The position numbers and the translations under genes are program-made. DNA of 64,000 nt, from the NCBI GenBank assembly GCA_963666285.1, contig OY762711.1, one strand, 5' to 3'. Below the pieces are notes generated by a model. The model did no database searches, was not told the origin of the DNA, and worked only from the letters and a program-made list of their open reading frames with translations. This stretch comes from Sedimentisphaerales bacterium. GTDB taxonomy: Bacteria > Planctomycetota > Phycisphaerae > Sedimentisphaerales > SM23-30. Below, one piece after another: positions 2,159 through 31,634 of this stretch; positions within the stretch are counted from its first letter, which is position 1; every line of letters begins with the position of its first letter.

Positions 2159-2189
2159 TTGTTTGTCTTTTTAGCACAAATTAAACATT

Positions 2190-2228: not shown

Positions 2229-2257
2229 GTTATATTTTATTTTGTTGCAAGTGTTTA

Positions 2258-4897: not shown

Positions 4898-4956
4898 TTA
4901 ATACGGGCGAAAGGAGTCGAACCTTCACATCTCTCGATACCAGAACCTAAATCTGG
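4898..4956 (-). repeat. Left att site: displaced 3' portion of tRNA-Leu
   Basis: 57/59 identical to 45391-45449; lacks the tRNA 5' half. Confidence 0.95.
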
Positions 4957-8195: not shown

Positions 8196-9640
8196 TATAA
8201 ATACTCGATACTATCAATTACGGCATCCGCAAAATATGCGTTACAACAACTTGCACAATATGTTCCTCCACCAACAGACACCGTAACTTTTTTGTTGCCT
8301 GGACATAAAATTGTGTAAGTACCTGGGCCACCTATACCGCCACACAGCGAAGCTAAATCAGAATCACAACTACCACCAGAGTATTGACCAGTTCCACCTC
8401 CCCAACCAACAGTAACATCTTTGCCACTTAATAAAGCACATAAACAGCAATCGCCACCGACTTCTATCGGAAGGTCACTTGAAGATGATTCGCTGGAGCT
8501 GCCTTCTGAGCTGCTTGATGAATTGTCAGAACTTGAACTTGAGCTATCGCCGGAACTGGAGCTTGACTTTTTACTGGAACTGCCGCTCGAACTGGCCGAA
8601 CTGTCAGAGCTTGAACCGGAACTGCCGGACGAATCACCAGAGCTTGACGAAGATTCATCATCAGAACTGCCAGAACTATGGTCAGAACTGAAACTTGAAA
8701 AAGGCGGCGGCGTACTGAAATCATGGCTGCTTGAGCTTTTACGTGATTCTGATGTATGGTCAGAACTGCCACTGCTTTTATCTGAACTGCCAGAGGTAAA
8801 ATCAGAACTGCCCGAACTTTCGCTTGAACTGCCGGAAGTGTGGTCAGAACTACCGGAACTACTATATGAACTGCCAGAAGTATTATCCGAGCTTCCAGAA
8901 CTTTTATCAGAGCTGCCCGATGTAAAATCTGAACTGCCTGTGCTTTTGTCGGAACTGCCGGAAGTATGGTCGGAGCTGCCCGAACTACCGTCTGAACTGC
9001 CGGAACTGCCCTTTGAACTTGAACTATGCCATGAGCTACATGAGCTATGAGAACTCTTTTGTGATGTACCGGAACTGCCGGAACTATCATAAGAGCTAAA
9101 ACTTGACAATGACGAACTGCTGCTTATAGATTTTGATTCACTGGAAAAGCTATAAGACGAACTTGCCGTTGTATCGTATGAACTGCCACTTGTCGATTCT
9201 GAGCTATCACTTGAATGCTTCGAGCTGCTTTCAGTTTCAGAGCTGAAGTATGAACTTAACGAACTGGCATCACCTACATAGATACCGGTACAATACCATT
9301 CATCTTGTTTTTTATTCCTGATAGCAGTAAAGTAGTTGTTCTTTAATACATTTGGGTATTCAGCTATCTGACACTTTATCAGTATATCATAATATGGATT
9401 AGTTTCCGGCACTTCTTCATTAACACGATTAAATAATGTACCCCTGAAATAGCCCTCATCGTCTATATCTGAACTTGTAATAATACCAAAGACCATTTCA
9501 TCTTTAAGCACTTTACCATTAAGAACACTTGTTTTCCGACTGGACAGCGTGTTAACTGTGTCGATAACCTGGTTCAAACGCTTAACGGTTGAATGCGGGC
9601 CTTGTGTAAATTTTTCGATTTTAAATGAATTTCTGCTCAT
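8195..9640 (-). CDS. Serine-rich, mucin-like putative tail-tip/fibre protein with a Cys-rich C-terminal domain
   Basis: ~260-aa Ser-dominated tract; position after tape measure and tail gene; start overlaps the upstream stop. Confidence 0.75.
   Translation of the reverse strand: MSRNSFKIEKFTQGPHSTVKRLNQVIDTVNTLSSRKTSVLNGKVLKDEMVFGIITSSDIDDEGYFRGTLFNRVNEEVPETNPYYDILIKCQIAEYPNVLKNNYFTAIRNKKQDEWYCTGIYVGDASSLSSYFSSETESSSKHSSDSSESTSGSSYDTTASSSYSFSSESKSISSSSSLSSFSSYDSSGSSGTSQKSSHSSCSSWHSSSSKGSSGSSDGSSGSSDHTSGSSDKSTGSSDFTSGSSDKSSGSSDNTSGSSYSSSGSSDHTSGSSSESSGSSDFTSGSSDKSSGSSDHTSESRKSSSSHDFSTPPPFSSFSSDHSSGSSDDESSSSSGDSSGSSGSSSDSSASSSGSSSKKSSSSSGDSSSSSSDNSSSSSEGSSSESSSSDLPIEVGGDCCLCALLSGKDVTVGWGGGTGQYSGGSCDSDLASLCGGIGGPGTYTILCPGNKKVTVSVGGGTYCASCCNAYFADAVIDSIEYL
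8759..9010 (-). repeat. 12 x 21-bp coding tandem repeat (xxSGSSD heptads)
   Basis: GSSGSSD x2, HTSGSSD, KSTGSSD, FTSGSSD, KSSGSSD, NTSGSSY, SSSGSSD, HTSGSSS, ESSGSSD, FTSGSSD, KSSGSSD. Confidence 0.9.
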
Positions 9641-10440
9641 GTTATTATACTGTCAATAAGACTGTTAAAAGCTATCTGGTCTAATACTTCAAAATCATCA
9701 GCCTCGGCATCTGCGGGCGGGTCGCCTGTATTGGGATCAACATAAATCAGCGATTCATTCCAGGCTTTAGAATTATATTGAAACTGGTATGTCATATCAT
9801 AAACATACTGCTTACCAGAATTAAATATTGGAAGTACATAATTAAAGTCTATACCTGTACATTTCCATTTTCTAACTGCACCATCAAAGGCAACAGACCA
9901 GTTATCACTATTAACTTTACCGACATAACTTTCCGCAAGCTGCTGAGGTTTCTGAATAGTAGAAAATATCTGTCTGCGTTTAATTGTTAACGGTACAACT
10001 GATTTATCAACTGCAATTAACTTGCTGACTTTATCAGTCTGCCCGGCATATTTTATATCAATAGTGTAGTCATCTGGATACGTGTATTCTAAAACAATTG
10101 CTTTGCCGTTCCGATCCAGGTTAGTTTCAATCTGTATCAACCCGCCGCCGCCGCTTATCTCGTCGGCAAATCCTGCCATTTGCTCATACTGTATTAGAAA
10201 TGTTACAGTATCAGAAGCTATCGAAGTTGGCGAAATAGAACGGATATAATTATTAGTAAATGATGGGTGCTGCATACCAATATCAAGCCCCAACATATTA
10301 AAAGCCTGCTTAATCTTGGCATGACCGCTTTGCCCTGCGGTAATACCACTTACCAAAGCTGAACGGCTGACATTCTCCCAACCCCGGCGGGTATAGGTTG
10401 CCGCATCACCATCGATCAAATCTGTATATACTACTGACAT
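9637..10440 (-). CDS. Putative distal tail/hub protein
   Basis: Directly follows the tape measure gene; beta-rich composition; assigned by position only. Confidence 0.5.
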   Translation of the reverse strand: MSVVYTDLIDGDAATYTRRGWENVSRSALVSGITAGQSGHAKIKQAFNMLGLDIGMQHPSFTNNYIRSISPTSIASDTVTFLIQYEQMAGFADEISGGGGLIQIETNLDRNGKAIVLEYTYPDDYTIDIKYAGQTDKVSKLIAVDKSVVPLTIKRRQIFSTIQKPQQLAESYVGKVNSDNWSVAFDGAVRKWKCTGIDFNYVLPIFNSGKQYVYDMTYQFQYNSKAWNESLIYVDPNTGDPPADAEADDFEVLDQIAFNSLIDSIIT

Positions 10441-10443
10441 CTA

Positions 10444-11850
10444 TTACCTCAAAACAATATTCTGGATAGTATTTGCTATCGCTGTTGTATTCTGTGCCGT
10501 CTTTTCGTTTGCCTTTAAGTTCTGAGCTATCTTGTTATTACTCAAGGAAGAGCCAAGCGAACCAACCGAAACAGCACCGGCATCTATACTCATTATCGAG
10601 CCGCCTTTCATAGCAGCAGACACCGGCATATTACCGCCGCTAATTGAGCCTATCGGATCTCTGGTTTTTATCTTTAATTCTGTAGCCTTACGCCTTTTCT
10701 CAACCTCGGCAAATATCTTGTCAATAGTCTTTTTGCCATCGTCAAAGGAAAATATCTGGTCTAAACCTTCTTTGGCAAGGTTGTTATTCTGCCTGCTCAT
10801 CTCATTTGCAAACGCTTCAAGCTCACTTGCCTTATTGCCGGTAGATTCAGCAAAATCTGATATAGACTGCAAATCAAGCAATTTGCCGACCAGCTTTGAC
10901 ACTGCCGACACCACATCAAGCACAACACTTGCAAGGCCGCTAAACAAGGTAATAACACTACCTATAAAGGCCGATACGATTTTCAGTATCCCATGAATAA
11001 CACTAAAAGCCTTTGCGATAACATTGGCTATCAAAAAGGTTTTTTCCAGGCCCTTGTTAATACTGTCAGAACTGGCTATCCCGCTGGTACGCATATCCAT
11101 AAAAAGCTCACTTACATATTGAATATACGGCGCAAGGCCAACCGCTAATTTATCAATAAGTAAGGAAGTTGACTTTCTAAGGTTAGTAATAGCATCGTTA
11201 GCGGCTTCCACCTGTGCAGCGTCAACCCTGTTAATTGCACCGCCAAATTTATCTACCTCATTCATCATCTCACGAAGTGAGCCGGAACCGCCTTGCAGCA
11301 TTTGCAGCATTGCCACACCTTCAGTATCGAACAGCTTAAAGGCATATCTGACACGATCAGCCTGGCTCGGTACTTTAGCAAAGGCATCTGCCAGCGTTAA
11401 AAGTGCTTTTGCCGGGCCTTCCCGGTTGAGCTTCTTGGCATCTACCCCCAAAGCGATAAGGGCGTTTTTCGCCTCTCCTGTTCCCTGTGCAGCTTCACCG
11501 ACACGCCGAACCATTCTTTGTATAGAAGTATTCAGCGATTCGGTTTTAACCCCTGACAGCTCGGCGGCATGTTGCAGCTTGATTAAATCATCTGTCGCTA
11601 TTCCAAGCCGGTCTGACAGTTTGGCAAGATTATCAATTCTACCCATAGCCTTACCAACAGCCACAGAAACCGCACCAAAGCCCGCCGCCGCTGCTATGCC
11701 CATAGCCTTAAATATTCTGGAAACAGCCGTCACGCTTGCTTGTGCGGCTTTCTCGAACCTGTTCAGCTTCTTACGGCTTCGCTTGATATTTCGCTCAAAC
11801 AAAACAGTCTTTGCGGTAAGGTTTATTAGTAATGTTGCTACAGTTGCCAT
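10444..11850 (-). CDS. Tape measure protein (short, 468 aa)
   Basis: MATVATLLINLTA N-terminus; Ala/Gly-rich helical sequence; follows the tail chaperones. Confidence 0.85.
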   Translation of the reverse strand: MATVATLLINLTAKTVLFERNIKRSRKKLNRFEKAAQASVTAVSRIFKAMGIAAAAGFGAVSVAVGKAMGRIDNLAKLSDRLGIATDDLIKLQHAAELSGVKTESLNTSIQRMVRRVGEAAQGTGEAKNALIALGVDAKKLNREGPAKALLTLADAFAKVPSQADRVRYAFKLFDTEGVAMLQMLQGGSGSLREMMNEVDKFGGAINRVDAAQVEAANDAITNLRKSTSLLIDKLAVGLAPYIQYVSELFMDMRTSGIASSDSINKGLEKTFLIANVIAKAFSVIHGILKIVSAFIGSVITLFSGLASVVLDVVSAVSKLVGKLLDLQSISDFAESTGNKASELEAFANEMSRQNNNLAKEGLDQIFSFDDGKKTIDKIFAEVEKRRKATELKIKTRDPIGSISGGNMPVSAAMKGGSIMSIDAGAVSVGSLGSSLSNNKIAQNLKANEKTAQNTTAIANTIQNIVLR

Positions 11851-11865
11851 AATGACCTTTACATA

Positions 11866-12174
11866 CTATGTATGTTTACACGTTGCCTTTAATAGTTCTT
11901 TCATCATCTGCCAGCTCATTATTTTTTTGAACCGGCTAAATGTCGGCATAAATTCTTTAAGATTATAATTCTTCTTACTATGCAGATTAGCGTTAACCTG
12001 GCATAACAGGGCATTTCTAAAATCTGCCCGCCATTCGCCAAAAGGATTAACCTTATAATATGCCATCCATTCGGATAGTTCCTTGCTGGTCATTCGGTTT
12101 AACAGTTCGCTAACTGTCATCCCCAAATGACCGGCAAGGGTAAATACAAATTGCCTGAACGGATGGTTTACGAG
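11866..12174 (-). CDS. C-terminal part of tail assembly chaperone GT, reached by -1 frameshift
   Basis: The -1 frame is open from the slippery site (LVNHPFRQFVFTLAGHLGMTVSELL...EWMAYY) into ORF 11866..12126. Confidence 0.85.
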   Translation of the reverse strand, partial: LVNHPFRQFVFTLAGHLGMTVSELLNRMTSKELSEWMAYYKVNPFGEWRADFRNALLCQVNANLHSKKNYNLKEFMPTFSRFKKIMSWQMMKELLKATCKHT

Positions 12175-12512
12175 TTTTTTTCAAGCTCATCAATGTCATT
12201 CTGACTTATACCTGACAGCTTGCTTGCTACCGAAAATATCCTGTCCAGGGCCGCCGCCGATTTATTGCCAAGCTCAACGATATCAGCCTGGGTAAACATC
12301 AGGTTGCGGCTTGAATCAACAACGCTCATAGCCGCAAGTTTAGCACGAATATTGCGGGTGTCAGTTACACCGCCTTGCACGATTGACGCTTCAAATGCGT
12401 CACGTTCAACGCCTGACATTGCCTTTACTATTACATCGCCGCCCCATTCAGGGACAGAAACAACCTGTATTTTAAGGTCTTGTGAATTAAGTATATCTTC
12501 TCTTGTCAACAT
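12168..12512 (-). CDS. Tail assembly chaperone G
   Basis: VPEWGGDV...ELEKNS; between tail tube and tape measure genes. Confidence 0.85.
   Translation of the reverse strand: MLTREDILNSQDLKIQVVSVPEWGGDVIVKAMSGVERDAFEASIVQGGVTDTRNIRAKLAAMSVVDSSRNLMFTQADIVELGNKSAAALDRIFSVASKLSGISQNDIDELEKNS
12174..12180 (-). other. Programmed -1 ribosomal frameshift slippery heptamer A AAA AAC
   Basis: GAA AAA AAC TCG TAA at the 3' end of the G gene fits X XXY YYZ. Confidence 0.85.
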
Positions 12513-12548
12513 CTTTGCTACTTCCTTGTATTAGTATGTTAGATTAAA

Positions 12549-12953
12549 TTAAGCACCTGCCGAAAATTCAGGTTTGCCGGTTAGTTTGATTGTTATATCA
12601 GCCGTAATTTTATCATCGTTTGGCGATGTGCCGGAAATACCGGAAACATAGCCGGAACCTTTCCAGCTTGCACTATCAGGGAAAGTAACCGTCCAATCTT
12701 CTGCTGTTCTGCCGTCGGCAGAAGTTTTCAGGGCATTGAATGTTGTTTTCAAATAATTACCTGAAAAGGTAATTTCCCCGGCATCGATCATGCCGGCGAT
12801 AAATTCCTTGTAAGCGTCGGGACTGTCCATATTGCTTACTTCGATCATATCAACGGTTAAACCGCCGATTGTGATTGATATAAGCTCGCCGATAGTACCG
12901 GCTTTACTTCCTTTTAATGTTGTGCCAAATCCATGTATTGCACTGCTTGTCAT
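12549..12953 (-). CDS. Major tail (tube) protein
   Basis: IEVSNMDSPDAYKEFIAGMIDAGEITF and ITIKLTGKP, lambda-like tube motifs. Confidence 0.85.
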   Translation of the reverse strand: MTSSAIHGFGTTLKGSKAGTIGELISITIGGLTVDMIEVSNMDSPDAYKEFIAGMIDAGEITFSGNYLKTTFNALKTSADGRTAEDWTVTFPDSASWKGSGYVSGISGTSPNDDKITADITIKLTGKPEFSAGA

Positions 12954-12975
12954 TTTTCTTTACTCCTTTAAGATT

Positions 12976-13047
12976 TATACACATAGTGTATTTTTGCCTG
13001 ATCGCTCGCAGAGAACAAATGCCAGTGAAATCATTTATATCACGCTC
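12976..13047 (-). promoter_or_regulatory. Late-gene upstream element, copy 1
   Basis: Plus strand TATACAC-N3-GTGTATTT...CGCT...ATATCACGCTC; shared with copies at 14922 and 19665. Confidence 0.55.
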
Positions 13048-13075
13048 TGGCGGGCAATCTGAATTGTGATTATTC

Positions 13076-13510
13076 TTACAGGTTATACCACAACTGAATA
13101 TCTATTCTCTTTCCGTAGCGTTTAGATTTATCAGTTCCCTCTGTATAGTCAAAGATATCACCTATATCATTTACATGAACACATTGTATTATTAAGCCAT
13201 CAATAGAGCCGCTAAAGCAGTCTATACCACCGGTATTATCTTCCTTGACATATTCTGCAACTACAGCATTTTTAAGCTCTACAGTGCTTATATAACTGTC
13301 AGACCAGCAATTTAGCTGCATACGTGCTTTACTCATACCACTTACACCATCTAATACATGGTCTCTTTCTTCAGAGATAAGATTATAAGTAATATATGGC
13401 ATTACTGATTTAGGCTCGCCCAGTTCCGGCGATATCCGTTCAGCCACTAAAGCCGTTACCTGGCTGCAATTTGCCAGAAGCTTATATACTGCTTTTTCTG
13501 CACTGCTCAT
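13076..13510 (-). CDS. Tail terminator/completion protein (DUF3168-like)
   Basis: LVAERISP...PYITYNLIS...RMQLNCWS; synteny. Confidence 0.8.
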   Translation of the reverse strand: MSSAEKAVYKLLANCSQVTALVAERISPELGEPKSVMPYITYNLISEERDHVLDGVSGMSKARMQLNCWSDSYISTVELKNAVVAEYVKEDNTGGIDCFSGSIDGLIIQCVHVNDIGDIFDYTEGTDKSKRYGKRIDIQLWYNL

Positions 13511-13595
13511 TCTGTCCTCGTTACAATCTCATCTGCCCGCCTGATCGTGGTATAAATGTCCACAATTAACAATCAGGTATCAGGCGATTAGTTAA

Positions 13596-14048
13596 TCACA
13601 CACTTTGTGTGTCAATACCTTTTTTGATTTCCTTTTCCATTACCTTTATACGTGCCTCGTTGGTCTTTTCCGCTGCCGTTCTCATATACGGTATCGGTGG
13701 AACCTTACCGCCATTTGTTGTTACATGACCATACTCGATAGCGGTCGGGATAAAATACCTTTCGCCTGATTCGGTATTATGGACAAACTCGTCTGCACGT
13801 TTAGCGTCAATTTCAACATTTGTCCGGTATTCACCCGGCTTCTGTCTGCGAGCCGCTTTAACCTGCAATGCGCCGCTTATCTTATTACCCATCTCACCGC
13901 CAACCATAGAAACAGCGTTTGCCTTTGCTTCCTTGAGCGTTACCCTTTGGGCTACTCTACTGGCCTTACGGACAATATTTTTAGCCTTGCTCTTTTCCAT
14001 CTTTAACAGCTTGCGTTCAAGATTATCAAATCCCTCTAAACTGCTCAT
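13596..14048 (-). CDS. HK97 gp10-like tail component
   Basis: LEGFDNLERKL...IEYGH...PPIPYMRTA. Confidence 0.85.
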   Translation of the reverse strand: MSSLEGFDNLERKLLKMEKSKAKNIVRKASRVAQRVTLKEAKANAVSMVGGEMGNKISGALQVKAARRQKPGEYRTNVEIDAKRADEFVHNTESGERYFIPTAIEYGHVTTNGGKVPPIPYMRTAAEKTNEARIKVMEKEIKKGIDTQSV

Positions 14049-14365
14049 TTCTGCTCCTGTGCCGTTACTATCATAAAGATATTGCGTTCCTGATAGTTCT
14101 GTACGGCTATAATTTCAAAGATTCTATCTTCCCACTTTATCCGGCAATTCTCGTCTAAATCGGCGTTATACCTGATTACAATACTATGTGTTACGCTGGC
14201 AGTTTCACGATTACCCTGTTCTTTAACCTGGCCTGATACCGGCTTTATATTGGCCCAGGCATAAGCAATCTTTGTCCAGTTTTTAACCGGCTCGCCGTAA
14301 TCACTATTTACAGTTGTGCTATAGTTCTGTAATTCTACTAAATGCCTTAACTGTCCAACCTGCAT
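14045..14365 (-). CDS. Head closure/stopper protein (SPP1 gp16-like)
   Basis: MQVGQLRHLVELQ...YGEP...W...WANI...IRY. Confidence 0.9.
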   Translation of the reverse strand: MQVGQLRHLVELQNYSTTVNSDYGEPVKNWTKIAYAWANIKPVSGQVKEQGNRETASVTHSIVIRYNADLDENCRIKWEDRIFEIIAVQNYQERNIFMIVTAQEQK

Positions 14366-16948: not shown

Positions 16949-17788
16949 TCAGCTTGCTGTCCGCGCAAGTCTTAATCTGTTACGCATTGCCTGTTTATTG
17001 ACAGGACTTTCCCTCATTATCTGTTCAAATGTAGCTATACGGTCGATCATACCAGCCTGTAAAGCGTCACTTGCAATTAACATTCTGCCCTTGCCGTATG
17101 TGCCTTTAACATTATCTGCCGTTGTCTGGCGGTTACTGGCAACGGTATTTACAAAGCGGTCATAATACTGATTAACCTGGTATTGTAAGTATTCCTTAGC
17201 GTCCTTACTTAACGGCTCATAAGGGTTTGCCTCAACTTTGTATTCACCGGCCTTAACAATAGTGAGTTTAACACCCATCTTATCAAGTGCCTCGCTGACA
17301 TCCTGATGAACAACCAGAGTGCCAATACTGCCGACCTGACTGGTAGGCATTGCCACAATTTCACTTGCCGCCGAGCCGATACCATAAGCAGCAGAAGCCA
17401 TCCAGCCGTTAACCAGTGCGACAATCGGCTTTTGTGACCGCATAGAAGCAATCTTACCGCTCATCTCATCCATTCCCATAGCGTCACCGCCGGGGCTGTC
17501 AATATCAAGTATGATACGGTTAACCTTTTTATTGCTCATAGCCTGTTCTAACAGGTTATCCAAGTTCTGGTAACTCTGACCGAAATAGCGGGAATATGCA
17601 CTGTCCCGGTTAAATAAAGGCCCTTGTATCGGGATTACACCGGCAGAGCCGACCACATTTAACATAGCCGCCTTTTCATACCAGCTTGCATTCTGCGGCT
17701 TTTCCATATCGTGACATTCAGTAATAATGTCTTTAATGTCAGCGGCGTAATCCTCGTGTATATGCCAGATTTTATTCTTGTTCTTCAT
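16949..17788 (-). CDS. S49 (SppA-type) prohead maturation protease
   Basis: LDIDSPGG, MASAAY, VGSIG, AGEYK. Confidence 0.95.
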   Translation of the reverse strand: MKNKNKIWHIHEDYAADIKDIITECHDMEKPQNASWYEKAAMLNVVGSAGVIPIQGPLFNRDSAYSRYFGQSYQNLDNLLEQAMSNKKVNRIILDIDSPGGDAMGMDEMSGKIASMRSQKPIVALVNGWMASAAYGIGSAASEIVAMPTSQVGSIGTLVVHQDVSEALDKMGVKLTIVKAGEYKVEANPYEPLSKDAKEYLQYQVNQYYDRFVNTVASNRQTTADNVKGTYGKGRMLIASDALQAGMIDRIATFEQIMRESPVNKQAMRNRLRLARTAS

Positions 17789-19004
17789 CTGTTGGCTCTT
17801 TCACCTGTTCAATACCAGAACTTTCAATTGTGCCATCTTCGCTAATTCTGGTCATATTGGTTTGCATGTAATAACTGTCACCGCCGGGGATTGGGTTTCG
17901 GTTTTCTAATATCCTTATTTCATTGCGAGACAATGTACCCCGGTAAAATTCCTTTGTGTATGCGTCCTGTCTGGTTTTGATATCACCTCTTAATAAGCCT
18001 TCCATAAGCATTTCACAGAAGTAATTATCACCATCTAATACAGTTTTCTTTATACGGCCTTCAAAGCTTTTGACCTGCGGTAAAATAGTATCTGTCGCAA
18101 ATTCCAGACTCTGATGTTCGATATTGGTAAAGGTTGATCTAAGTAAATGTGCTATCTTATGCGGCGGCATACGATACCAGCGGCATACTTCCTCTATCTG
18201 GTGCTGGCGGGTCTGTAAAAACTGTGACTCTTCCGGGGTATTTGACATTGAAGAATATTTAATACCTTCCTCGGTAACTAATACGCCTTCTTCTGCCATA
18301 CGCTTTACTGACTTGACAAGCCTGTTTTGTGCGCCTTCTGATAAAGTATTAGGATGTTCTAATACAGCATTCGGCCTTGCTCCCTTTTGAAAGAACTTAG
18401 CACCAAACAACTCGGTAGCCCTTGCCAGCCCGATAGTATCGCTGCCCGCTTCAATTGGTGATATGCCATCATAACCATTCAAAGTCAAGCCCGGCAGATA
18501 CAGCATTTCATCTTGTAGATATATGCGGTTCTCGCCGTTCCTTGTGACTTTATACCGTAATGTATCATCGGCCATTAACTGGTTCTGTACCTGGGTCGGA
18601 TGTATCGGTAAACCAAACTCTATTATATTGCCAAAGTAATCACGCTTAATCGGACTGTATGCACGCCCGTAAAGGTTCTTATGTGTTAATAGCGTCATAC
18701 GCCATTCAAAACTTGTCTGTATCTTATTAGGCGATTCTTTAAGCAGATAATACAAATAATGGTTCTCGGCCCGCTGCTTGCCGCCGTCCGACTGTTTCTG
18801 ATATGTCAAAAACGGTAACAATGCTATTGTTTCACATATAACTTTGTTACAGGCCCATATCGCACTTACCCTTAATGCGTTCTCAGGTGTAACCGGAACG
18901 CCAGCCGCCGACAAAGCAGGTACGGCAGAATACCAGAAGTCATCATAAGGACTTTTTTTAGGCTTTTCGCTTGCCTTAAATTTATTAAACAGACTTCTCA
19001 GCAT
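17772..19004 (-). CDS. Portal protein, HK97 family
   Basis: ALRVSAIWAC, GISPI, ESQFLQTR, NIEHQ, LLRGD, NEIRILEN. Confidence 0.95.
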   Translation of the reverse strand: MLRSLFNKFKASEKPKKSPYDDFWYSAVPALSAAGVPVTPENALRVSAIWACNKVICETIALLPFLTYQKQSDGGKQRAENHYLYYLLKESPNKIQTSFEWRMTLLTHKNLYGRAYSPIKRDYFGNIIEFGLPIHPTQVQNQLMADDTLRYKVTRNGENRIYLQDEMLYLPGLTLNGYDGISPIEAGSDTIGLARATELFGAKFFQKGARPNAVLEHPNTLSEGAQNRLVKSVKRMAEEGVLVTEEGIKYSSMSNTPEESQFLQTRQHQIEEVCRWYRMPPHKIAHLLRSTFTNIEHQSLEFATDTILPQVKSFEGRIKKTVLDGDNYFCEMLMEGLLRGDIKTRQDAYTKEFYRGTLSRNEIRILENRNPIPGGDSYYMQTNMTRISEDGTIESSGIEQVKEPTDEEQE

Positions 19005-19665
19005 ATACGTTACTTGTTGGCCTTAGCTTTTTATAGTGCTTGTAATTAGCAAGCTGTAAATATTCGGTATTAACTTTATGGTCACGCATGGCAGTTACTA
19101 TACTGCACTGGTCACGCTTACAAACCTTTATCATCTCAGCCCATGTTTTAAGGGCTTCGCACATCTTTTCTGTACACTTATAAATTACAATCGAAGTATC
19201 AAACAAACCAGATTTTTCGGGCAGGTTTGTAGTAAGGTTTGTAGTAGTTATGGCATCTAAAGCCTCGTTACTATCCCTTTTATATTTGCGGTTGCGGGCT
19301 ATTTCGTGATAGGTACAATCTGTTATTCTATGCCTTAACGCTGCAAATTCTGTTTCCGGCTGTAACTGACAGACAAGAGCGTCCAGGTCTGAATCAACGA
19401 TATACTTTTCAGTATCAATAAACACACACCAGTCATATTTTGGATATATTATTGGAAACATGGCCTTAATGATCTTTGATTCATGTTCGCCGCTATAGCC
19501 TGGGAAACGCATTAAAAGCGATTCCCATATATCAGAGCTGTTATGTGATAAATCATCGGTTACAAACAAATAGTCCCACCCCTCAGTAATATAACCAGGG
19601 GCAATAATTCTCGGTGTCCCAGGCCCATACCAGCGGATTACAACTGCTTTATTATTCTCTTCCAT
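18985..19665 (-). CDS. DUF616 (TOD1/MUCI70-like) glycosyltransferase; probable start ATG 19665
   Basis: WDYLFVTD, SKIIK, VFID, RHRITDCTYHEI, RDQCS; RBS GAGGTG. Confidence 0.75.
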   Translation of the reverse strand: MEENNKAVVIRWYGPGTPRIIAPGYITEGWDYLFVTDDLSHNSSDIWESLLMRFPGYSGEHESKIIKAMFPIIYPKYDWCVFIDTEKYIVDSDLDALVCQLQPETEFAALRHRITDCTYHEIARNRKYKRDSNEALDAITTTNLTTNLPEKSGLFDTSIVIYKCTEKMCEALKTWAEMIKVCKRDQCSIVTAMRDHKVNTEYLQLANYKHYKKLRPTSNVYAEKSV

Positions 19666-19735
19666 ATACACCTCGTGTATTTAAACATTTAATCGCTTGA
19701 TAAAATAACAATATTGAAACCCTATATATCACGCT
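19665..19735 (-). promoter_or_regulatory. Late-gene upstream element, copy 3
   Basis: TATACACCTCGTGTATTT...TCGCT...ATATCACGCT. Confidence 0.55.
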
Positions 19736-19748: not shown

Positions 19749-22700
19749 TCAATTGCCAAGACCATATATTACCACTCCATGCAGTTTATGCTTTTTACTT
19801 GGCTCAAGCCTGGCTATTTCCCTGTAACCTGTGCCGACAAGGTATTTACTAATAAAATCCTGTTCCTGCTTTCTGAATATATCGTGACAGGCAATGTATT
19901 TACTCTTTGAATTAACGGCAGTAATAAATGATTCTTCCCTTGCTTCCGGCGGGTCTGGCCCATCGATAATAACAAAGTCATGTGCAGACATACTAAAAGC
20001 CTTACCATCATATAATTCAATACAATCCCGGTCTAATAGCAGCCTGATTTTATCATGCCAATACTGACTTGTTTCATAGCTGGTAATATCAAAGCCAAGT
20101 GAAGCAAAGGAAAGAGTAGAAGCACCACAGCCAAATTCTACTATTTTGCTGATACTATGTTCCTTCAGGAAATCAACAACAAAATTAAATTCCTTTGTCC
20201 GCATTGCTCCTTTATCATCCAAATGCACATAAAAGGCATTTTTACCATGCAGCCGCTTTTCTTCTGCCTTGTACAGAAACGCCGTAAATTCGCTGTTATA
20301 GTCTTTATCAAAATGCGGCTGCCAAATACCATTATCAACCAAATTCGCCCGCTGTTCGACATTCTCGTAAGCATAATCCGCTAACTGCTTGTTCTTACCC
20401 GTCATTGACAAATGGAAACCATCACCGCCGCCACGCCAGACATAGCCCGGCAAAAATGGATAACTGATACGCTGTTCATGCCATGAGCTTAAACGAACCC
20501 GGCCATCGTAACAGTTATCAGGAAGGCCCTTAACCGGCTTATTAAACTTAGCCGCCAGCATATCGCGGCTCACAGTCTCAAATACCGCACAAGTCCAGCC
20601 GGAACCGTTCTTGATAAAGGCATAGTCATTATTACACATTACAACCTTGCGTTCATGTGAAGACTGCAAAGGCCGTTTATTGGTTTTCTTATGATAACCT
20701 TGCTTATTCCAGTAATTGACCTGCATTAAGGTTAATATGTGATTTTCCAGCATAATATCGTCATCATCACAAATCATCCAATACGGCGTATTAACCAGGC
20801 TGATAGCGCGTTCGTGCTTTTTAGCAAGAGTATCAAAGTTATGACCGGGCATTTCCACAACCTCTATATTGCTGTACCGCTGCTGAAATACTATCGGGTC
20901 TTTATGGGTATTAAGAAGTAATAATCTTGCCTTTGGATAGCTCTGGCGTAAAAACGATTCTATCATTTCTTCGGTACGGTGTTTATGTGCGCCATACGTG
21001 CAGCAAACTACAGTAACTTCAGGATATTCACCTAAAGTATAATCAAGTGTGACAGGCTGCGGGCTGGCCTCGGCTCTGGCCCTTGTAATCCGATCCAGTT
21101 TGTTTTCATGGGCGTTTTTGCCGGACTTGCTTTCATGTATTACATGGTTGCGACACCATGTATAAGTAACCGGCAAATCAAGTTCCAGCGGCGCTAAAGC
21201 TTCCATAATGCGTTTATCGAAGCCCTGCAAATCTGAACCGATATCAACTTTACGCATATCGTCGGTACGATAGACACCATTCCACCACATAAGCTTTTTA
21301 AGCTGCTTTACCGGCCCGGTCATATTTCCAGGCTTGATATTACTGCAATCCATTTCCTCAAAGTTCAGATTGATAACATTCTTGAACTTATTGGCCTTTA
21401 AAGCTTGTGCCATCTGTTGAACATGGTTAATACTTACCCGGTCATCATCGTCAAGAATAGATACATGCGAAGTCGTAACATGCTTTAAGGCTTGCTTAAA
21501 CTCGGTTATATGGTCAGACGGTGCAATATTGACAACCTCAATACAAGGATGATAGCCGTTAATCCATAGCGGTTTAGGATTGCTGTTAACAATAAGAAGC
21601 TTTTTATTCTCATAGTTATTATTCAAAAAGGAATTAACCGCTATTTCTAGCGAAGTTCTATCCCTTTGGAATGTATTCATAATGTAGGTAATAGCGGGAT
21701 TGTTAAAGTTATCTATCATATCATTATAATCTTTCTGCCAACCTGGTTTAATTGACTCTAATATGTTGTCCCTGACCTTTTCTATCGAGTTTTTATAATA
21801 GCCCGGCTTACTGTGCTCATTCCTGATATGAAAACCCACGCCGAGCCGGTGCAATACGGTCGGTTTTTCATTGTGGTATTTAGTCCAGTTCCATTCACTG
21901 TTTTTAATGAAATGTAAGTCGCTGCCGGTGTCTTTCTGTTTACTGGCTAGAAAGTCATTGAATACCTCATCAATAAAGTCATTATCAACCTTTTCATACA
22001 GACAACACCACCAGCCACGCTCCCGGCATTTAGGCCAGTTATTTTTAACCTGCTCCCAGGCAATATCATTTATCACATAGCCGGGACTTTCCAGACCTTC
22101 ACTTTTAGCCCTGTAATATAGCTTGACAAGGCTGCTTATATGGTCAGAACTAAATACATCATCTGAATCCATAATGCACCATAGCGGCGTTTTAACCTGC
22201 TTTAAGGCATAGGCTATCTGCTGCGGGAAACGGTTAAACGGCTCATGGTTGATTACTGTGATATTATCATAATCCTTGTCAAGTTTGTATGTGGGATTGG
22301 TTGCCACGATAACAAGCTGCTTGTTTTCGTAATCCTGCCGTAAAAAGCTTTCTATAGCCTCTGCGTCTAAATGTGGGTAAAGACCGTTTGTATTCATTAT
22401 CGCCGTTACAGCTGGCTTGTCGCCGCTTACAACAGAAACAGGCGGCAACGAGACAATTAAAGGCCGTTTATGCTCATGCTTTACCTTTTTAGGCAATAGA
22501 TACCCAAGCTCGGTTTCAAAAAAGTCAAATCCCCGGCACTGGTTCTCACCTGTACCATCAAACCACTTGAATAAATCCTGCCTGCCCTTTGATACTCCCG
22601 GTGTCTTATAGCCTGTACTGCCGTTTTTCCACATGTGAGCGAATGGAGCCTCACCGCACAATATAACCTTACCGCCTATACTCTCGCCGTATGGATCGGA

Positions 22701-23324
22701 CAGCCAGACCTTAGAAGCCCATTCAACCCCGAAATTACCCCACCGGGCAGGCTGTTTTTTACAACAGCCATTAAAAGCATCATAAAACTGCTTTTCCAGA
22801 AACCAGCCCATGCCGTTACCGGTAATGGTATATTCATTACGGCCCTGGGTTTTAATGCCGCTCCACTGGTCCTTATAGCGAACATCGATATACTTATGCC
22901 CTTGCCGACGGCCTTTACACTTATAATCAGGTAATATCAGGTTATCCAAATCAGGAATAACCATAGTACGCTTATCGATACATAGCTGCTTATATATAGT
23001 ATCCCAACCGAAAACATCAGTTTTACAGTGTGAATCTATATGAAAAACATACTTGCCTTTAGCATAAGAAACAGCCTTGTCAGTTGCGGGCCTTCTGCCG
23101 ACATTATCTTTCAGGGTGATAATAGTAGTCTTTGCACCTGCTATATCAATCGGCTCATCATTTGGCCCATCAAGTAAAACAATAAACTCTATCGGGCCTT
23201 CTGACATACGCTGCATATTATTTAAGGTCTTACCAAGCAACTTTTCATTGCGTGCAACCATAATAACACTGACAAGCTCATCAAGTACCTCATCCTTATT
23301 CTTTTTTATAATTTCCGGTAACAT
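19749..23324 (-). CDS. Multidomain glycosyltransferase: ppGalNAc-T(GT27)-like domain, three GT2-like domains and a class I SAM methyltransferase
   Basis: Domain 1 has IDSHC (D97), WG (W195), AHMWK (H230). Domains 2-4 have DSDD (386), DDDD (625), DDDD (853). MTase motifs VEFGCGAST, IIDGP, ACHD. Confidence 0.85.
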   Translation of the reverse strand: MLPEIIKKNKDEVLDELVSVIMVARNEKLLGKTLNNMQRMSEGPIEFIVLLDGPNDEPIDIAGAKTTIITLKDNVGRRPATDKAVSYAKGKYVFHIDSHCKTDVFGWDTIYKQLCIDKRTMVIPDLDNLILPDYKCKGRRQGHKYIDVRYKDQWSGIKTQGRNEYTITGNGMGWFLEKQFYDAFNGCCKKQPARWGNFGVEWASKVWLSDPYGESIGGKVILCGEAPFAHMWKNGSTGYKTPGVSKGRQDLFKWFDGTGENQCRGFDFFETELGYLLPKKVKHEHKRPLIVSLPPVSVVSGDKPAVTAIMNTNGLYPHLDAEAIESFLRQDYENKQLVIVATNPTYKLDKDYDNITVINHEPFNRFPQQIAYALKQVKTPLWCIMDSDDVFSSDHISSLVKLYYRAKSEGLESPGYVINDIAWEQVKNNWPKCRERGWWCCLYEKVDNDFIDEVFNDFLASKQKDTGSDLHFIKNSEWNWTKYHNEKPTVLHRLGVGFHIRNEHSKPGYYKNSIEKVRDNILESIKPGWQKDYNDMIDNFNNPAITYIMNTFQRDRTSLEIAVNSFLNNNYENKKLLIVNSNPKPLWINGYHPCIEVVNIAPSDHITEFKQALKHVTTSHVSILDDDDRVSINHVQQMAQALKANKFKNVINLNFEEMDCSNIKPGNMTGPVKQLKKLMWWNGVYRTDDMRKVDIGSDLQGFDKRIMEALAPLELDLPVTYTWCRNHVIHESKSGKNAHENKLDRITRARAEASPQPVTLDYTLGEYPEVTVVCCTYGAHKHRTEEMIESFLRQSYPKARLLLLNTHKDPIVFQQRYSNIEVVEMPGHNFDTLAKKHERAISLVNTPYWMICDDDDIMLENHILTLMQVNYWNKQGYHKKTNKRPLQSSHERKVVMCNNDYAFIKNGSGWTCAVFETVSRDMLAAKFNKPVKGLPDNCYDGRVRLSSWHEQRISYPFLPGYVWRGGGDGFHLSMTGKNKQLADYAYENVEQRANLVDNGIWQPHFDKDYNSEFTAFLYKAEEKRLHGKNAFYVHLDDKGAMRTKEFNFVVDFLKEHSISKIVEFGCGASTLSFASLGFDITSYETSQYWHDKIRLLLDRDCIELYDGKAFSMSAHDFVIIDGPDPPEAREESFITAVNSKSKYIACHDIFRKQEQDFISKYLVGTGYREIARLEPSKKHKLHGVVIYGLGN

Positions 23325-24934
23325 TAGAATGTAAAAGGGTCTCTTTCCTCATAAACAGATTCTTGGGTTTCGTGGTTCTCGGTAATTAACCGGCCTAAAG
23401 CCATTAGCCCGGCAACAATAATATCGATACGCTTAAAGTTCTTAGGCTTGACAGGCTTGATATTCTCGTTTTCATCCTGCTTGACCGTTACATTAGAAAC
23501 GCACCAGTTTAATACAGGATGGTCATCATGGGCGATCTTACCAGCCAGTAATAAAGCCTCTAACGCTTTACATGGCGGGGATATATTCTTTATACCCTGA
23601 CCATAAGGCGTACATTCGATACCTTTATCCTGTAAGTTTAATATCATCTGAGTAGCGTTATATGGGTCATAAGCGATTTCAGAAAAGTTATATACCTGGT
23701 GCATTTTCAATATATGATTCTGGATTACGCTATAATCAACAACATTACCATCTGTAAGAGTGATTTTACCTTGCCGCGCCCAGGTCAGATAAGGAACGCC
23801 GTCTTGATGTTCCCGTCTGGTTGCGTTCTCTTTAGGGATAAAAGGCCAGCTATGCCAGTGCAGATTACCAAGCGAATCGAAACCTAAAGCAGTAAAGGCC
23901 GTTAAATCCGTTGTAGTTGATAAGTCAAGCCCGCCAACCCAAATAATACCGTTATCACTTCTAAGTTCGATATTGCAATCCTGCCACGCCTTAACACTTA
24001 ACCAGCGGCATTCCTGCTCTGTCCACTGGTTCAAGTGTAAACGCCTGAAGGTGTTTTCCTTTGCCGGGATTGCCTTTGCTTTCTGACACTGCTTTTCCAG
24101 ATAGTCACGATTAACCGATATACCTAAATTCGGGTTGCAATATTCCCATACCGCCGGGTCATCCCATCTATCATAATCAGCCTGCTTGATTTCATAGATA
24201 ACAGGCAAAAAGGAACTGTCCTTTATTGCACCGTCACGCACCTTACAGGCATAATCATATTTTTCATAACAGATTGTTTCCTTGTCATATCCGGCAGTAG
24301 TAATATGAATTACTAAAGGCTGCCGACGTGAAGCGGTGGAAGTTTCCAGCGTATCAATTAAATCCCTTGTTTTATGTACATGCAGTTCATCATTGATAAT
24401 CAAATGGGCGTTCTGACCATGCTTGGTATTGGCATCAGCAGAAAGAGCATTATAAATACAGTCACCGCCGTAAAACTCGGCACTCTTATAGGTCTTGTAT
24501 ATCTTGGCCCGCTTGTCAAGCTCTGGATTACGCTGGATCATACCCGCTACATGACGGAAGATTAAAGCGGCCTGGTTCTTTTCCCCGGCACTGGAATAAA
24601 TCTGACCGCCCGGCTCATCCTCATTATAGGCCACATGGTTAATGACACCTGCCATTAGCGGGGTTTTACCGTTCTTACGTGGTATCATTAAAAACGCTTC
24701 GGTATAGCGTCTTGTACCATCAGGACACAGCCAGCCGAACAGATTAGCGATAATAGCCTTTTGCCAATCTTCCAGGACAAAGGCAGGATAGCCCGATACA
24801 CCCTCAATTAAACACAACTCTTCAGCAAAGAAATCGATAGCAAGTTGCGCAATATCAGCGTCAAAGATACAGTCCTCGGCTGTTGCAACCGAATCATAAT
24901 CCGGTATAAGTTGTAAATAATCGGGGTAATCCAT
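23324..24934 (-). CDS. terL: Terminase large subunit
   Basis: IPRKNGKT (Walker A), INDELH (Walker B), ITTAG, GLDLS, YDPY, KRID. Confidence 0.97.
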   Translation of the reverse strand: MDYPDYLQLIPDYDSVATAEDCIFDADIAQLAIDFFAEELCLIEGVSGYPAFVLEDWQKAIIANLFGWLCPDGTRRYTEAFLMIPRKNGKTPLMAGVINHVAYNEDEPGGQIYSSAGEKNQAALIFRHVAGMIQRNPELDKRAKIYKTYKSAEFYGGDCIYNALSADANTKHGQNAHLIINDELHVHKTRDLIDTLETSTASRRQPLVIHITTAGYDKETICYEKYDYACKVRDGAIKDSSFLPVIYEIKQADYDRWDDPAVWEYCNPNLGISVNRDYLEKQCQKAKAIPAKENTFRRLHLNQWTEQECRWLSVKAWQDCNIELRSDNGIIWVGGLDLSTTTDLTAFTALGFDSLGNLHWHSWPFIPKENATRREHQDGVPYLTWARQGKITLTDGNVVDYSVIQNHILKMHQVYNFSEIAYDPYNATQMILNLQDKGIECTPYGQGIKNISPPCKALEALLLAGKIAHDDHPVLNWCVSNVTVKQDENENIKPVKPKNFKRIDIIVAGLMALGRLITENHETQESVYEERDPFTF

Positions 24935-27746: not shown

Positions 27747-28106
27747 TCATTTGTGGTAGGATTTGTAGTATATATCCGCTATTGTAGTTAGTGAAACATA
27801 GCCGGTTTTACCCACCCTTATTAAACCGATCACCCGCTGACGCTGGATTGCGTAAGCTTCCCTTAAATACTGTAGCTGCTCGGCTGTTATTGATATGCCA
27901 TTGTCTTTATCAACTGTAGCGTCAAGTGTCTTTACCACTCTTGCCAGTAAAGTATTAAAATGTTTTTTCGGCATTCCATCCCACAAACTCATCATTTCAA
28001 CATATAGCTCATCTTTTGATATTGGCGATGTGCCTATCATCTCTGCCATAAATGCCGTCTGTGAAATAGGCAACTGATATACAGGGTGTAATTTTCTTTC
28101 TATCAT
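27747..28106 (-). CDS. Hypothetical protein
   Basis: 119-aa ORF whose start overlaps the upstream stop. Confidence 0.55.
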   Translation of the reverse strand: MIERKLHPVYQLPISQTAFMAEMIGTSPISKDELYVEMMSLWDGMPKKHFNTLLARVVKTLDATVDKDNGISITAEQLQYLREAYAIQRQRVIGLIRVGKTGYVSLTTIADIYYKSYHK

Positions 28107-28447
28107 ATTAACTCCGTTTCTACATTTAGATAACTAATAGGCTTATTAAATTCTTTGGCAAGCCTGATTTCAGCCTGCACGCCTTTTGATTGTTGCCAGC
28201 CGGGAATTTGTAACACTTTCAATTCATCACATTTGCTTATCATCAAAGTGTCGTAACTTTCCCAAAAATCCCAATCACCAGGTAAACCATAGCGGGAAAT
28301 CGGGTGAGTGTGTGCTATAGGGCTATACACAAACAATCCCTGTTTCATTAACTCCGCTGCATATTTACAAACCAGTTCAAAACGCTTTTCTTTAATAGCT
28401 TCCGATTCATGCGAATACGGAGAGGCCAAATATATTAGTCTTTTCAT
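28103..28447 (-). CDS. DUF1937 family protein (nucleoside deoxyribosyltransferase-like fold)
   Basis: LIYLASPYSH, VYSPIAHTHP, WQQSKGVQAEI. Confidence 0.85.
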   Translation of the reverse strand: MKRLIYLASPYSHESEAIKEKRFELVCKYAAELMKQGLFVYSPIAHTHPISRYGLPGDWDFWESYDTLMISKCDELKVLQIPGWQQSKGVQAEIRLAKEFNKPISYLNVETELI

Positions 28448-28456
28448 CTTTACTCC

Positions 28457-29122
28457 TTAAAATAGCTGCCCTTGTTTTGTATGATTGCTCAATCGTTCAC
28501 AAGCAGCATGAAAATAATCTGTGTCAAGTTCACACGCTACTAAGTCAAAACCTAAATCCCAACATGCTATAGCAATCGAACCACTGCCGAGATGGGTATC
28601 TAAAATCAATTGACCATCTTTTGCGTATTTCTCCAGAAGCCATTTATATAAATCAACTGGCTTTTGTGTGGGATGAAACTTGCACTTATTTCTATTGTTT
28701 TTATGAATACTGTATCTAAACACCTTTGCAGGCATCTTTAGCCCTAAACTTACCCAGGCATACTCAGCAGAAGAAAAATTATCGACCGTCTGTTCTTTAT
28801 CCCAAACACAGAAGTATTCTGTTATTGGTAACTCGAAATTATTTGCACCCCATATAATTTGATTTGCACTGGCATTAAAAAGCTTTTGAAAGTAGCTTTC
28901 ATCAGGTTTATTATTATTCCATTGCAGCTTATTACCTATAGACTTAAACCTTGTGTCTTTTTCGCTACGTGGCTTTGTAAAACATTGCAGATTATAAGGT
29001 GGGTCAACAATGGCAAGGTCGAATTGTTTATCCTGACATCCCTGCAAAAAAGCCATACAATCCATATTGTATATAGTGATATTGGCTCTGCCTGAAATTT
29101 CAAACTTATCTAAATAATCCAT
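28457..29122 (-). CDS. N6-adenine/N4-cytosine DNA methyltransferase, beta class (probable start ATG 29122)
   Basis: DLAIVDPPY, HPTQKP, ILDTHLGSGS. Confidence 0.92.
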   Translation of the reverse strand: MDYLDKFEISGRANITIYNMDCMAFLQGCQDKQFDLAIVDPPYNLQCFTKPRSEKDTRFKSIGNKLQWNNNKPDESYFQKLFNASANQIIWGANNFELPITEYFCVWDKEQTVDNFSSAEYAWVSLGLKMPAKVFRYSIHKNNRNKCKFHPTQKPVDLYKWLLEKYAKDGQLILDTHLGSGSIAIACWDLGFDLVACELDTDYFHAACERLSNHTKQGQLF

Positions 29123-29189
29123 TCTCGCAATCCTTTGCAAATGTCCTGCCCGCCGAAACGGGCAGAACAATATTAAACATTCTCTTTCC

Positions 29190-30743: not shown

Positions 30744-31634
30744 TTACGAGCCTAAAATAAAGCGTCTGGTGTTCTTTACAACGCTATAAAACAATTGTTT
30801 TGTTAATCCATTCTGTACCCATTCCCTGACATCCTTGCAGCGAATAGGCTTGATAATACAAACTGGTATATCTTTATAAGGCAGTTCTTTTGCAAGCCTT
30901 AATGAACCGTCCTGACCTGGAAACCAGACAGAACCATCAGGCCGCTTTTTAGGCTCATCATTGTCAGTAACAATAATTATTTTCTTTGGCTTTGTACGCT
31001 TGATATAACTCTGGATATGATTAATACCACTATTACAGTTAGCCCTGCCTATTACGCCTTCAATACCAATATCAAGTAATGCAGGCGGGTCTGTCGCACC
31101 TTCTACAATGACAAGTTCACTGCTGCATATTTCATCAGGGATAAACAGGCCGTTTTCACTTCCTGGGTAACTTGCCTTACTGCCTGCATGTCTGGTTCTG
31201 ATACCTATAATATTTTCGTTACCATCTCGCATTGGAAACGTCCAGCATTGCCGGGCTGGTTGATCTGGCTTAAACCCAATTAAGCCGCTGCCTGTTTCCA
31301 TGCGTTCCAGGCTTGCCACAGAAACGCCCAGTTCAGCACTTAACGGCATTAAGTCACAACCGGCACGATAACCCATTACCAGCTCAAACCAGCGTTCAGG
31401 ACGTATTTTAGGCGGCATATTTATTGTCTGCTTAACAACAGGCTTTACCTCTGTACTGTCTGTAATTACGTGCAGCCAGCCATAAGAACCATCTTTGCCA
31501 ATCTTGAGCCAATCTGATTCAACCCGCATACAGCGAACGGTAGAGCCGTCAACGGTTATCTGACACCAGTCATTTTTACCACAAACCGGACATAGCTTGC
31601 GGGCCTTCTCTATTCCAACCCAATCAGCCGACAT
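30744..31634 (-). CDS. Primase-like protein (Zn-binding domain plus TOPRIM)
   Basis: CPVCGKNDWC...C; VIVEGATD; IVTDND. Confidence 0.85.
   Translation of the reverse strand: MSADWVGIEKARKLCPVCGKNDWCQITVDGSTVRCMRVESDWLKIGKDGSYGWLHVITDSTEVKPVVKQTINMPPKIRPERWFELVMGYRAGCDLMPLSAELGVSVASLERMETGSGLIGFKPDQPARQCWTFPMRDGNENIIGIRTRHAGSKASYPGSENGLFIPDEICSSELVIVEGATDPPALLDIGIEGVIGRANCNSGINHIQSYIKRTKPKKIIIVTDNDEPKKRPDGSVWFPGQDGSLRLAKELPYKDIPVCIIKPIRCKDVREWVQNGLTKQLFYSVVKNTRRFILGS

Follow-up and report, generated by a model that had tools for sequence, protein, structure and literature searches.

In Gram-positive bacteria, serine-rich repeat and serine-aspartate repeat adhesins are glycosylated in the cytoplasm by linked, soluble glycosyltransferases (GTs; GtfA/GtfB plus later GTs, and SdgA/SdgB) that extend the glycan stepwise. 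These adhesin systems start with GT4 (GT-B) enzymes and export their products via an accessory Sec system. In animals, mucin-type O-glycosylation is initiated by the polypeptide GalNAc-transferases (ppGalNAc-Ts) of family GT27. Among phages, excerpts of two reports describe GTs of a few mycobacteriophages (Che8 and relatives) that glycosylate their own virion proteins; the glycans sit at the C-terminal ends of capsid and tail-tube subunits, and the GT genes lie near the genome end (PMC11256854, PMC12619734). Here we analyze a 1191-amino-acid (aa) open reading frame (ORF) in a prophage of a Sedimentisphaerales bacterium (GenBank assembly GCA_963666285.1), lying in a 64,000-nucleotide stretch of contig OY762711.1 that we call the window. 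Its first domain resembles the ppGalNAc-Ts, and we think it reasonably likely that the ORF encodes a late-expressed cytoplasmic enzyme that O-glycosylates the prophage's own serine-rich tail-module protein, with domain 1 starting the glycan on a serine tract. This reading draws on the GT27 homology, the metal site, the set of domains, the position in a late operon, the absence of membrane segments and the genetic association with serine tracts; it is gene context that suggests transfer to peptide. Judging from literature listings and the openings of abstracts, we found no description of a phage that pairs a GT27-like enzyme with a virion protein bearing a serine tract; several genomics papers on bacteria in those listings contain the term GT27.

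The ORF occupies window positions 19749..23324 on the minus strand, its translation spans 19752..23324, and the GT27-like stretch is its first domain. Pfam marked four separate GT2-type stretches on the whole protein and, run on the protein cut into pieces, gave a GT2-type match on each of the first four. The enzyme and the ORF that follows it are laid out as listed here.

22455..23324, minus strand: domain 1 (aa 1-290), a GT-A glycosyltransferase domain resembling GT27 ppGalNAc-Ts, with DxH (D97, H99), WGNFGVE (195-201) and a distal H230; from profile matches to the PDB, an AlphaFold2 (AF2) model, Foldseek, the VIA structure comparison and invariant residues
21705..22454, minus strand: domain 2 (aa 291-540), a GT2-like GT-A domain with a DSDD motif; from Pfam (PF00535, E 6.9e-8) and alignment A1
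21045..21704, minus strand: domain 3 (aa 541-760), GT2-like with a DDDD motif, a paralogue of domains 2 and 4; from Pfam (PF00535, E 2e-7; FKRP_N, E 2.1e-6)
20313..21044, minus strand: domain 4 (aa 761-1004), GT2-like with a DDDD motif; from Pfam (PF13641, E 6e-5; PF00535, E 1.3e-3, both under the curated cut-offs)
19749..20312, minus strand: C-terminal domain (aa 1005-1191 plus stop), a class I S-adenosylmethionine (SAM)-dependent methyltransferase fold with a glycine-rich EFGCGAST motif; from AF2 and Foldseek
18985..19671, minus strand: 228-aa ORF between the GT gene and the portal gene, a probable fifth glycosyltransferase, TOD1/MUCI70-like; from Pfam and ESM Atlas

The original prediction, made by eye from motifs, had described a eukaryote-like ppGalNAc-T (GT27-like) domain in a phage at 22480..23324, which corresponds to aa 1-281 of the ORF. 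The motif strings it quoted are present in the translation (NVGRRPATDKAVSYAKGKYVFHIDSHC...GW...RTMVIPDLD at aa 74-128 and GMGWFLEKQFY...WGNFGVEWASKVWL...AHMWK at aa 171-233), its numbering of D97, H99 and H230 is correct, and a GT27-like domain is supported, as profiles and Foldseek point to ppGalNAc-Ts over the whole domain. When the PDB was searched with the single domain 1 sequence, ppGalNAc-Ts appeared at E values of just 0.2-0.9, behind the plain GT2 structure 5hea at 1.8e-4, and the GT27 signal thus depends on the family profile. The 5hea entry, the best plain-GT2 match in the PDB, is GalT1/CgT (titled a putative glycosyltransferase), which we take to belong to a serine-rich adhesin glycosylation pathway. 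We used three profiles: A1, built from 12 family members; A2, from domain 1 alone in the same family; and A5, broadened with three remote relatives (a protein from Tara Oceans, the second GT of locus L004 and a GT from another planctomycete genome). With A1 the best ppGalNAc-T match in the PDB reached an E value of 8.6e-8, and 14 of 17 matches were GT27 enzymes covering profile positions 33-269. A2 matched mouse GalNAc-T1 (1xhb) at 2.9e-10 over positions 11-243 of 281, and A5 matched GalNAc-T10 at 2.3e-17 over positions 4-245 of 277, with ppGalNAc-Ts making up 16 of its 23 matches. Plain GT2 structures (5hea, 6p61, 3bcv) matched the first ~100-130 profile positions only, with E values near 1e-10 under A5.

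The resemblance extends to the metal site. DxH and the distal histidine had been proposed as the counterparts of the GT27 metal ligands, and in the HMMER alignment with A1 (chain indices counted with an offset of 87) D97 and H99 align with D209 and H211, and H230 with H344, of mouse GalNAc-T1. These three GalNAc-T1 residues are named as important for the Mn2+ site in an excerpt of a published report (PMC4202792). The 12 family members all keep D97, H99, H230, W195, G196 and E201, H230 is also invariant in A1, A2 and A5, and the metal ligands together with ~60 other positions are invariant among family members of 36-60% identity. The Gal/GalNAc-T motif WGGENxE is kept in part: W195, G196 and E201 match, and E319 and N320 of GalNAc-T1 are replaced by F198 and G199, which bears out the earlier observation that WGGE reads WGNF here. 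Since these two residues differ, domain 1 probably binds its donor in another way than GT27 enzymes bind UDP-GalNAc. Pfam found no ricin lectin domain, again as predicted, and GT2-like domains come after domain 1.

We modeled domain 1 with AF2 from a 12-row alignment (mean pLDDT 70.8). Whether structure would single out the ppGalNAc-Ts depended on the measure: Foldseek against the PDB placed only ppGalNAc-Ts at ranks 1-49 among the matches listed, and by structural Z alone GT27 tied with one archaeal GT2. In the VIA structure comparison, 28 of the top 29 rows were GT27 enzymes, with the longest aligned lengths (213-269, against 183-218 for plain GT2s). Because of the tie in Z, the fold alone says GT-A; what ties the domain specifically to GT27 is profile matching along its full length, together with the residues of the metal site and the greater aligned lengths. 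Pfam assigned domain 1 PF00535 only (E 2.4e-9, residues 12-94; residues 19-101 when the cut protein was searched). Set beside the GT2 hallmarks of PF00535 and DxD, domain 1 has PF00535 on its first third and DxH rather than DxD, and domains 2-4 have DSDD or DDDD. Feature neighbours of domain 1 in ESM Atlas were GT2 clusters of tailed phages, a few of which carry PF02709 on part of their members. Over its whole length, the closest solved relatives of domain 1 are GT27 ppGalNAc-Ts, at 15-19% identity. By these sequence comparisons the resemblance is beyond chance, and we call the domain GT27-like; we do not file it as a GT27 member, as it has neither the full WGGEN motif nor a lectin domain nor type II membrane topology.

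The remaining domains suggest further steps of glycan assembly. Internal BLAST relates domain 2 to domain 3 (E 4.9e-11) and to domain 4 (E 8.5e-18); domains 2-4 are mutual paralogues, a group that does not include domain 1. Each of the 12 aligned family members has domain 2 along with domain 1, whereas L004 lacks it. The AF2 model of the last 187 residues is an alpha/beta fold (pLDDT 79.7), and the Foldseek matches listed were all named methyltransferases, mostly SAM-dependent, except 6o63 (a spermidine synthase) and 3ocj (a possible exported protein); the best was ChlM (4qdj, E 1.2e-6). This domain was identified by its fold, as Pfam gave nothing on the last 196 residues and sequence searches gave no significant match; it has a Rossmann-like seven-strand fold with a glycine-rich SAM motif, EFGCGAST, that is invariant in the alignment. 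Across the 1191-aa enzyme we saw no hydrophobic segment (maximum Kyte-Doolittle 19-residue mean 1.07), and Pfam showed no flippase or bactoprenol-type partner. The 228-aa ORF matched PF04765 (TOD1/MUCI70) at an E value of 0.0093 and 15.7 bits, below the curated cut-off of 21.4, and 29 of its 30 ESM Atlas feature hits were TOD1_MUCI70 clusters from tailed phages. From these sequence matches it is probably the fifth glycosyltransferase of the locus.

The predicted acceptor is encoded in the tail module of the same prophage.

8195..9640, minus strand: 481-aa serine-rich tail-module protein, the predicted acceptor; from its translation, its composition and its place after the tape measure gene
9284..9640, within it: junction domain (aa 1-119)
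8450..9283, within it: serine tract (aa 120-397)
8198..8449, within it: Cys-rich C-terminal domain

The tract is 278 residues long, 54% serine and composed of SGSSDxT-like units. It uses all six serine codons in the proportions found in other genes, indicating that serine is kept at the protein level, and its DNA shows just a degenerate 21-nt period. The 481-aa protein contains no hydrophobic segment.

The 6.35-Mb genome carries three related prophages, at about 964.9-1005.4 kb (G000:C1; the one in the window), 2.104-2.143 Mb and 2.150-2.185 Mb, the latter two nearly back to back. All three share the order terminase large subunit (TerL), GT, 228-aa ORF, portal. Their GT copies are 100, 92 and 50% identical with no internal stops, and the 228-aa ORF is kept next to the GT in each (36% identity for the homologue in prophage 3). 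When we screened the genome for ORFs with more than 22% serine, only three of those listed reached at least 400 aa (32-35% serine), one per GT-bearing prophage and each after the tape measure gene.

The same pairing recurs in the close family. In L004, L005, L006, L007 and L008, a serine-tract protein with the same junction domain lies directly upstream of the GT. The junction domains align as one family (alignment A4) in which G52, F65 and W115 are invariant and W-x-C-x-x-I-[YFW] stands right before the tract. Altogether, a protein with a tract of 40-60% serine is present in 8 of 8 evaluable close-family loci, with L009, cut 189 nt upstream, excluded; the eight represent about six distinct lineages, as L005 and L006 are near-identical and PP1 and PP2 are 92% identical. 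Complex prediction for domains 1-2 together with the first part of the serine-rich protein (junction domain and beginning of the tract) gave no answer, and its score of 0.00 speaks neither for nor against binding.

Searching IMG/VR with the A5 alignment yielded 87 confirmed relatives, of which 78 loci at 22-40% identity were kept; most of these proteins are single-domain, at ~270-350 aa. We scored an ORF as carrying a serine tract if a 60-residue window held at least 24 serines. Such an ORF was present in 64 of 78 loci, compared to 5 of 80 control IMG/VR loci centred on TerL and 4 of 291 random host-genome chunks; in loci of at least 9 kb the tract was found in 54 of 61, compared to 4 of 37 controls. 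TerL served as the control query, the tape measure having given just one locus. The median distance between the GT and the nearest tract ORF was 936 bp, and in 60 of 63 loci the two share a strand. A regular-expression search found DxH in 67 of 77 relatives. It also recovered 69 Gal/GalNAc-T motifs, 57 of which have F, Q or M where GT27 has its glutamate, mostly with G as the next residue; departing from WGGEN is thus characteristic of the clade. In a midpoint-rooted FastTree of 90 sequences, which held no GT27 sequences, the 12 close family members formed one clade (support 0.999) whose sister comprises four IMG/VR proteins and the second GT of L004. Seven of the 77 relatives carry PF13578 and two a rhamnosyl O-methyltransferase/CmcI domain.

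The close family itself is rare. Full-length domain 1 occurred in 13 clusters among 5.8 billion clustered proteins, and close-family loci were found in one of 185,579 species genomes and five times in a metagenome collection. IMG/VR searched with family-specific patterns, and 50,697 phage records searched with tblastn, gave none. Within the host's own family, 2 of 25 genomes carry it, one of them G008 with locus L004, and among 400 other sampled genomes of the phylum there was nothing beyond a partial, distant match. A search needing shared 5-residue words returned no stand-alone domain 1 relatives of 165-525 aa, a blank that reflects a sensitivity limit; stand-alone forms of 386-406 aa exist in L004 and G008. 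At 9689..12230, L004 encodes two tandem domain-1-like DxH glycosyltransferases of 386 aa and 261 aa (the latter with 29% identity to domain 1), followed by a 203-aa ORF and an integrase and with no domain 2. In another planctomycete, L020 (G215:C258) holds at 268..2448 a cassette of a 304-aa DxH GT, a 244-aa GT2 and an ORF whose resemblance to a methyltransferase was judged only by eye; the L020 match to the domain 1 profile covers positions 10-225 of 281. In L006, L007, L009, P0008, P0014 and P0015 the GT is fused to a methyltransferase or has one next to it. P0008-P0013 and L004 (9689..10000) carry before domain 1 a Cys-rich N-terminal extension of ~70-160 aa with CxxC-type spacing, absent from the three copies in the genome under study.

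The prophage spans ~40.5 kb, is integrated in a tRNA-Leu gene and is bounded by an integrase, a 32-bp direct repeat and the tRNA-Leu. Its landmarks are as follows.

4898..4929: attL, an exact 32-bp direct repeat of attR, found by script
45391..45422: attR, the 32-bp repeat, overlapping the end of tRNA-Leu (45394..45477, minus strand)
5131..6303, plus strand: tyrosine integrase (Pfam PF00589, E 2.2e-27)
23324..24934, minus strand: TerL (PHROG phrog_9, E 3e-162)
17772..19004, minus strand: portal protein (PHROG phrog_12, E 1.2e-104)
10444..11850, minus strand: tape measure protein, upstream of the 267-aa and serine-rich ORFs (PHROG phrog_9483, E 2.4e-62)

PHROG matches outline a minus-strand HK97-type siphovirus module that runs HNH, TerS, TerL, GT gene, 228-aa ORF, portal, protease, major head protein, connectors, tail tube, chaperone, tape measure, 267-aa ORF, 481-aa serine-rich ORF and 372-aa ORF. 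The TerL stop codon overlaps the GT start codon (TAATG). Close TerL relatives in IMG/VR (51-59% identity) have the portal directly after TerL in 6 of 7 cases, indicating that the GT and the 228-aa ORF form an inserted cassette. The closest of these, L102 (59% identity), lacks a GT between TerL and portal; even so, it encodes after its head genes, at 12518..14251, a 577-aa ORF with a serine-rich window (26 of 60 residues). Elsewhere in the prophage, near attR, an ORF at 39963..43355 (minus strand) encodes a 1130-aa protein with RCC1 repeats, DUF11 and a right-handed beta-helix, which may be a fibre or depolymerase; its homologue in prophage 2 has 935 aa and is 51% identical. A 907-aa helicase-like ORF at 31624..34347 (minus strand) has a 554-aa match in prophage 2 (95% identity over 520 aa), a copy that may be truncated or split. 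In the early region, at 28103..29170 (minus strand), a nucleoside 2-deoxyribosyltransferase-like gene adjoins a DNA methyltransferase gene.

We propose a sequence of events for glycosylation of the tail-module protein. A soluble enzyme made late in infection would meet the newly made 481-aa protein in the cytoplasm, where domain 1, using Mn2+ and a UDP-sugar, not necessarily UDP-GalNAc, would place the first sugar on serine hydroxyls, with retention if domain 1 works like GT27. Domains 2-4 and the TOD1-like 228-aa protein would then extend the chain, and the C-terminal methyltransferase would cap it. The predicted product is a mucin-like, stiff, hydrated and protease-resistant stalk carrying the Cys-rich C-terminal domain at the tail tip. 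More tentatively, and with rather less confidence than for this one prophage, we suggest that tailed phages of several bacterial phyla may carry a sister family of the animal mucin-initiating enzymes which, with extension GTs and a capping methyltransferase, would make methyl-capped, mucin-like glycan brushes on tail serine tracts, and that this phage clade and eukaryotic GT27 may descend directly from a common ancestor. If so, the glycan-brushed tail would be a glycoprotein organelle made by a phage.

Several observations weigh against the proposal that the enzyme glycosylates the tail-module protein. In the window prophage the serine-rich gene lies 10 kb from the GT gene and does not adjoin it, and it is gene position that suggests the protein belongs to the virion. 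On the enzyme side, the acidic E of WGGEN is missing, with F198 here and F, Q or M in most viral relatives; the domain 1 model is moderately confident, with pLDDT below 50 at residues 128-150 and 243-285; and Pfam limits PF00535 to the first ~90 residues and detected no PF02709 in the 12 family members and 77 viral relatives. Some family variants carry a GT9 heptosyltransferase domain, a type more usual in lipopolysaccharide (LPS)-core enzymes. Among the viral loci, 14 of 78 have no tract in their flanks, and the relatives are not independent of one another: single linkage at 50% identity gives 9 clusters, 6 of them with a tract. Of 42 IMG/VR tract proteins compared with PHROGs, 32 had no hit, 8 fell into families of unknown function and 2 received structural names.

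The order of sugar transfer leaves room for a different role of domain 1. The locus has five putative GT modules and nothing fixes their order, the Gal/GalNAc-T motif is without the E and N of WGGEN, and the fold ties with GT2 enzymes acting on non-protein acceptors; domain 1 might therefore have a GT27-like fold and add its sugar to an existing glycan, the first sugar coming from the 228-aa protein, domains 2-4 or a host enzyme. We regard this as unlikely, given that enzymes of the domain 1 type are the one constant partner of serine tracts across loci, that L004 has two domain-1-like GTs only and no domain 2, and that the mostly single-domain IMG/VR relatives nonetheless adjoin tracts. Still less likely, in our view, is lysogenic conversion, in which the enzyme would act on the surface of the host, either on a glycan (LPS core, O-antigen or capsule) or on a protein, and so alter phage receptors or serotype. 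The tight linkage to serine-tract phage proteins would then be left unexplained, the gene sits inside the late packaging/head operon with an overlapping start and away from integrase or immunity genes, and there is no membrane segment, flippase or bactoprenol-type partner; in its favour are the temperate nature of the element (integrase and att sites), the family variants with a GT9 domain, and an excerpt of a report that host serotypes are modified by GTs of temperate phages (PMC12619734).

Two further explanations have, we estimate, only a very small chance of being right. DNA-glycosylating phage GTs are known (described in an excerpt of PMC12619734), and the prophage has the nucleoside 2-deoxyribosyltransferase-like gene and DNA methyltransferase noted above, raising the idea that the GT domains glycosylate modified phage bases to evade restriction. 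PHROGs gave no hydroxymethylase or other gene of a base-modification pathway, however, while five GT modules plus a methyltransferase suggest an oligosaccharide, and the association with serine tracts would go unexplained. It is just as improbable that domain 1 is a decayed or inactive GT-like domain whose only remaining role is structural or in binding substrate. The motif has lost one acidic residue and identity to any characterised enzyme is low, as such a view would have it, but the metal ligands and ~60 positions do not vary across members 36-60% identical, three intact copies persist in one genome, and the same motif substitution is the norm throughout the phage clade. O-glycosylation of the tail-module protein is directly testable because the enzyme and its predicted substrate are both defined genes.

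How the locus compares with described enzymes can be set out in turn. Ordinary GT2s (PcManGT 6yv7, SpsA 1h7l, K4CP 2z86) match the first ~85-130 profile positions only, align over shorter lengths than GT27 enzymes and use DxD, unlike domain 1 with its DxH and distal histidine. With eukaryotic ppGalNAc-Ts (1xhb, 2d7i, 2ffu, 8v9q), in contrast, the GT-A domain is matched end to end, the DxH and distal histidine align, the W, G and last E of the Gal/GalNAc-T motif are kept, and Ser-rich, mucin-like acceptor tracts are associated. The phage protein differs from GT27: it has WGNFG for WGGEN, lacks a ricin-type lectin domain and a signal anchor, has no Golgi setting and is predicted to be soluble and cytoplasmic; it is also fused to three further GT domains and a methyltransferase, and its clade is a phage one, separate from the animal family. 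If our reading is correct, glycobiology would gain a soluble, lectin-free ppGalNAc-T relative suited to bacterial expression and a comparison point for the origin of mucin-type O-glycosylation.

Like the Gram-positive adhesins, the locus combines a long Ser-rich tract with genetically linked, soluble GTs, the carrier here being a phage; unlike in those systems, no GT4 domain or secretion genes were seen in the prophage with Pfam and PHROGs. With the mycobacteriophages, as far as the excerpts describe them (PMC11256854, PMC12619734), it shares the concept of virion glycosylation by phage-encoded GTs, known here from genes, with a predicted acceptor. That acceptor differs from the mycobacteriophage subunits in being a dedicated serine tract of ~280 residues, and the GT27-like fusion lies inside the packaging/head operon of a prophage in another host phylum. 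If the reading holds, the result would be a mucin-like structure on the phage surface, with consequences for host recognition, resistance to proteases and antibodies, and the behaviour of particles in mucus or polysaccharide-rich habitats. Beside the mycobacteriophage route, it would represent a second, mechanistically different route to virion glycosylation, in which a GT27-like initiator acts on purpose-built serine tracts across phages of distant hosts.

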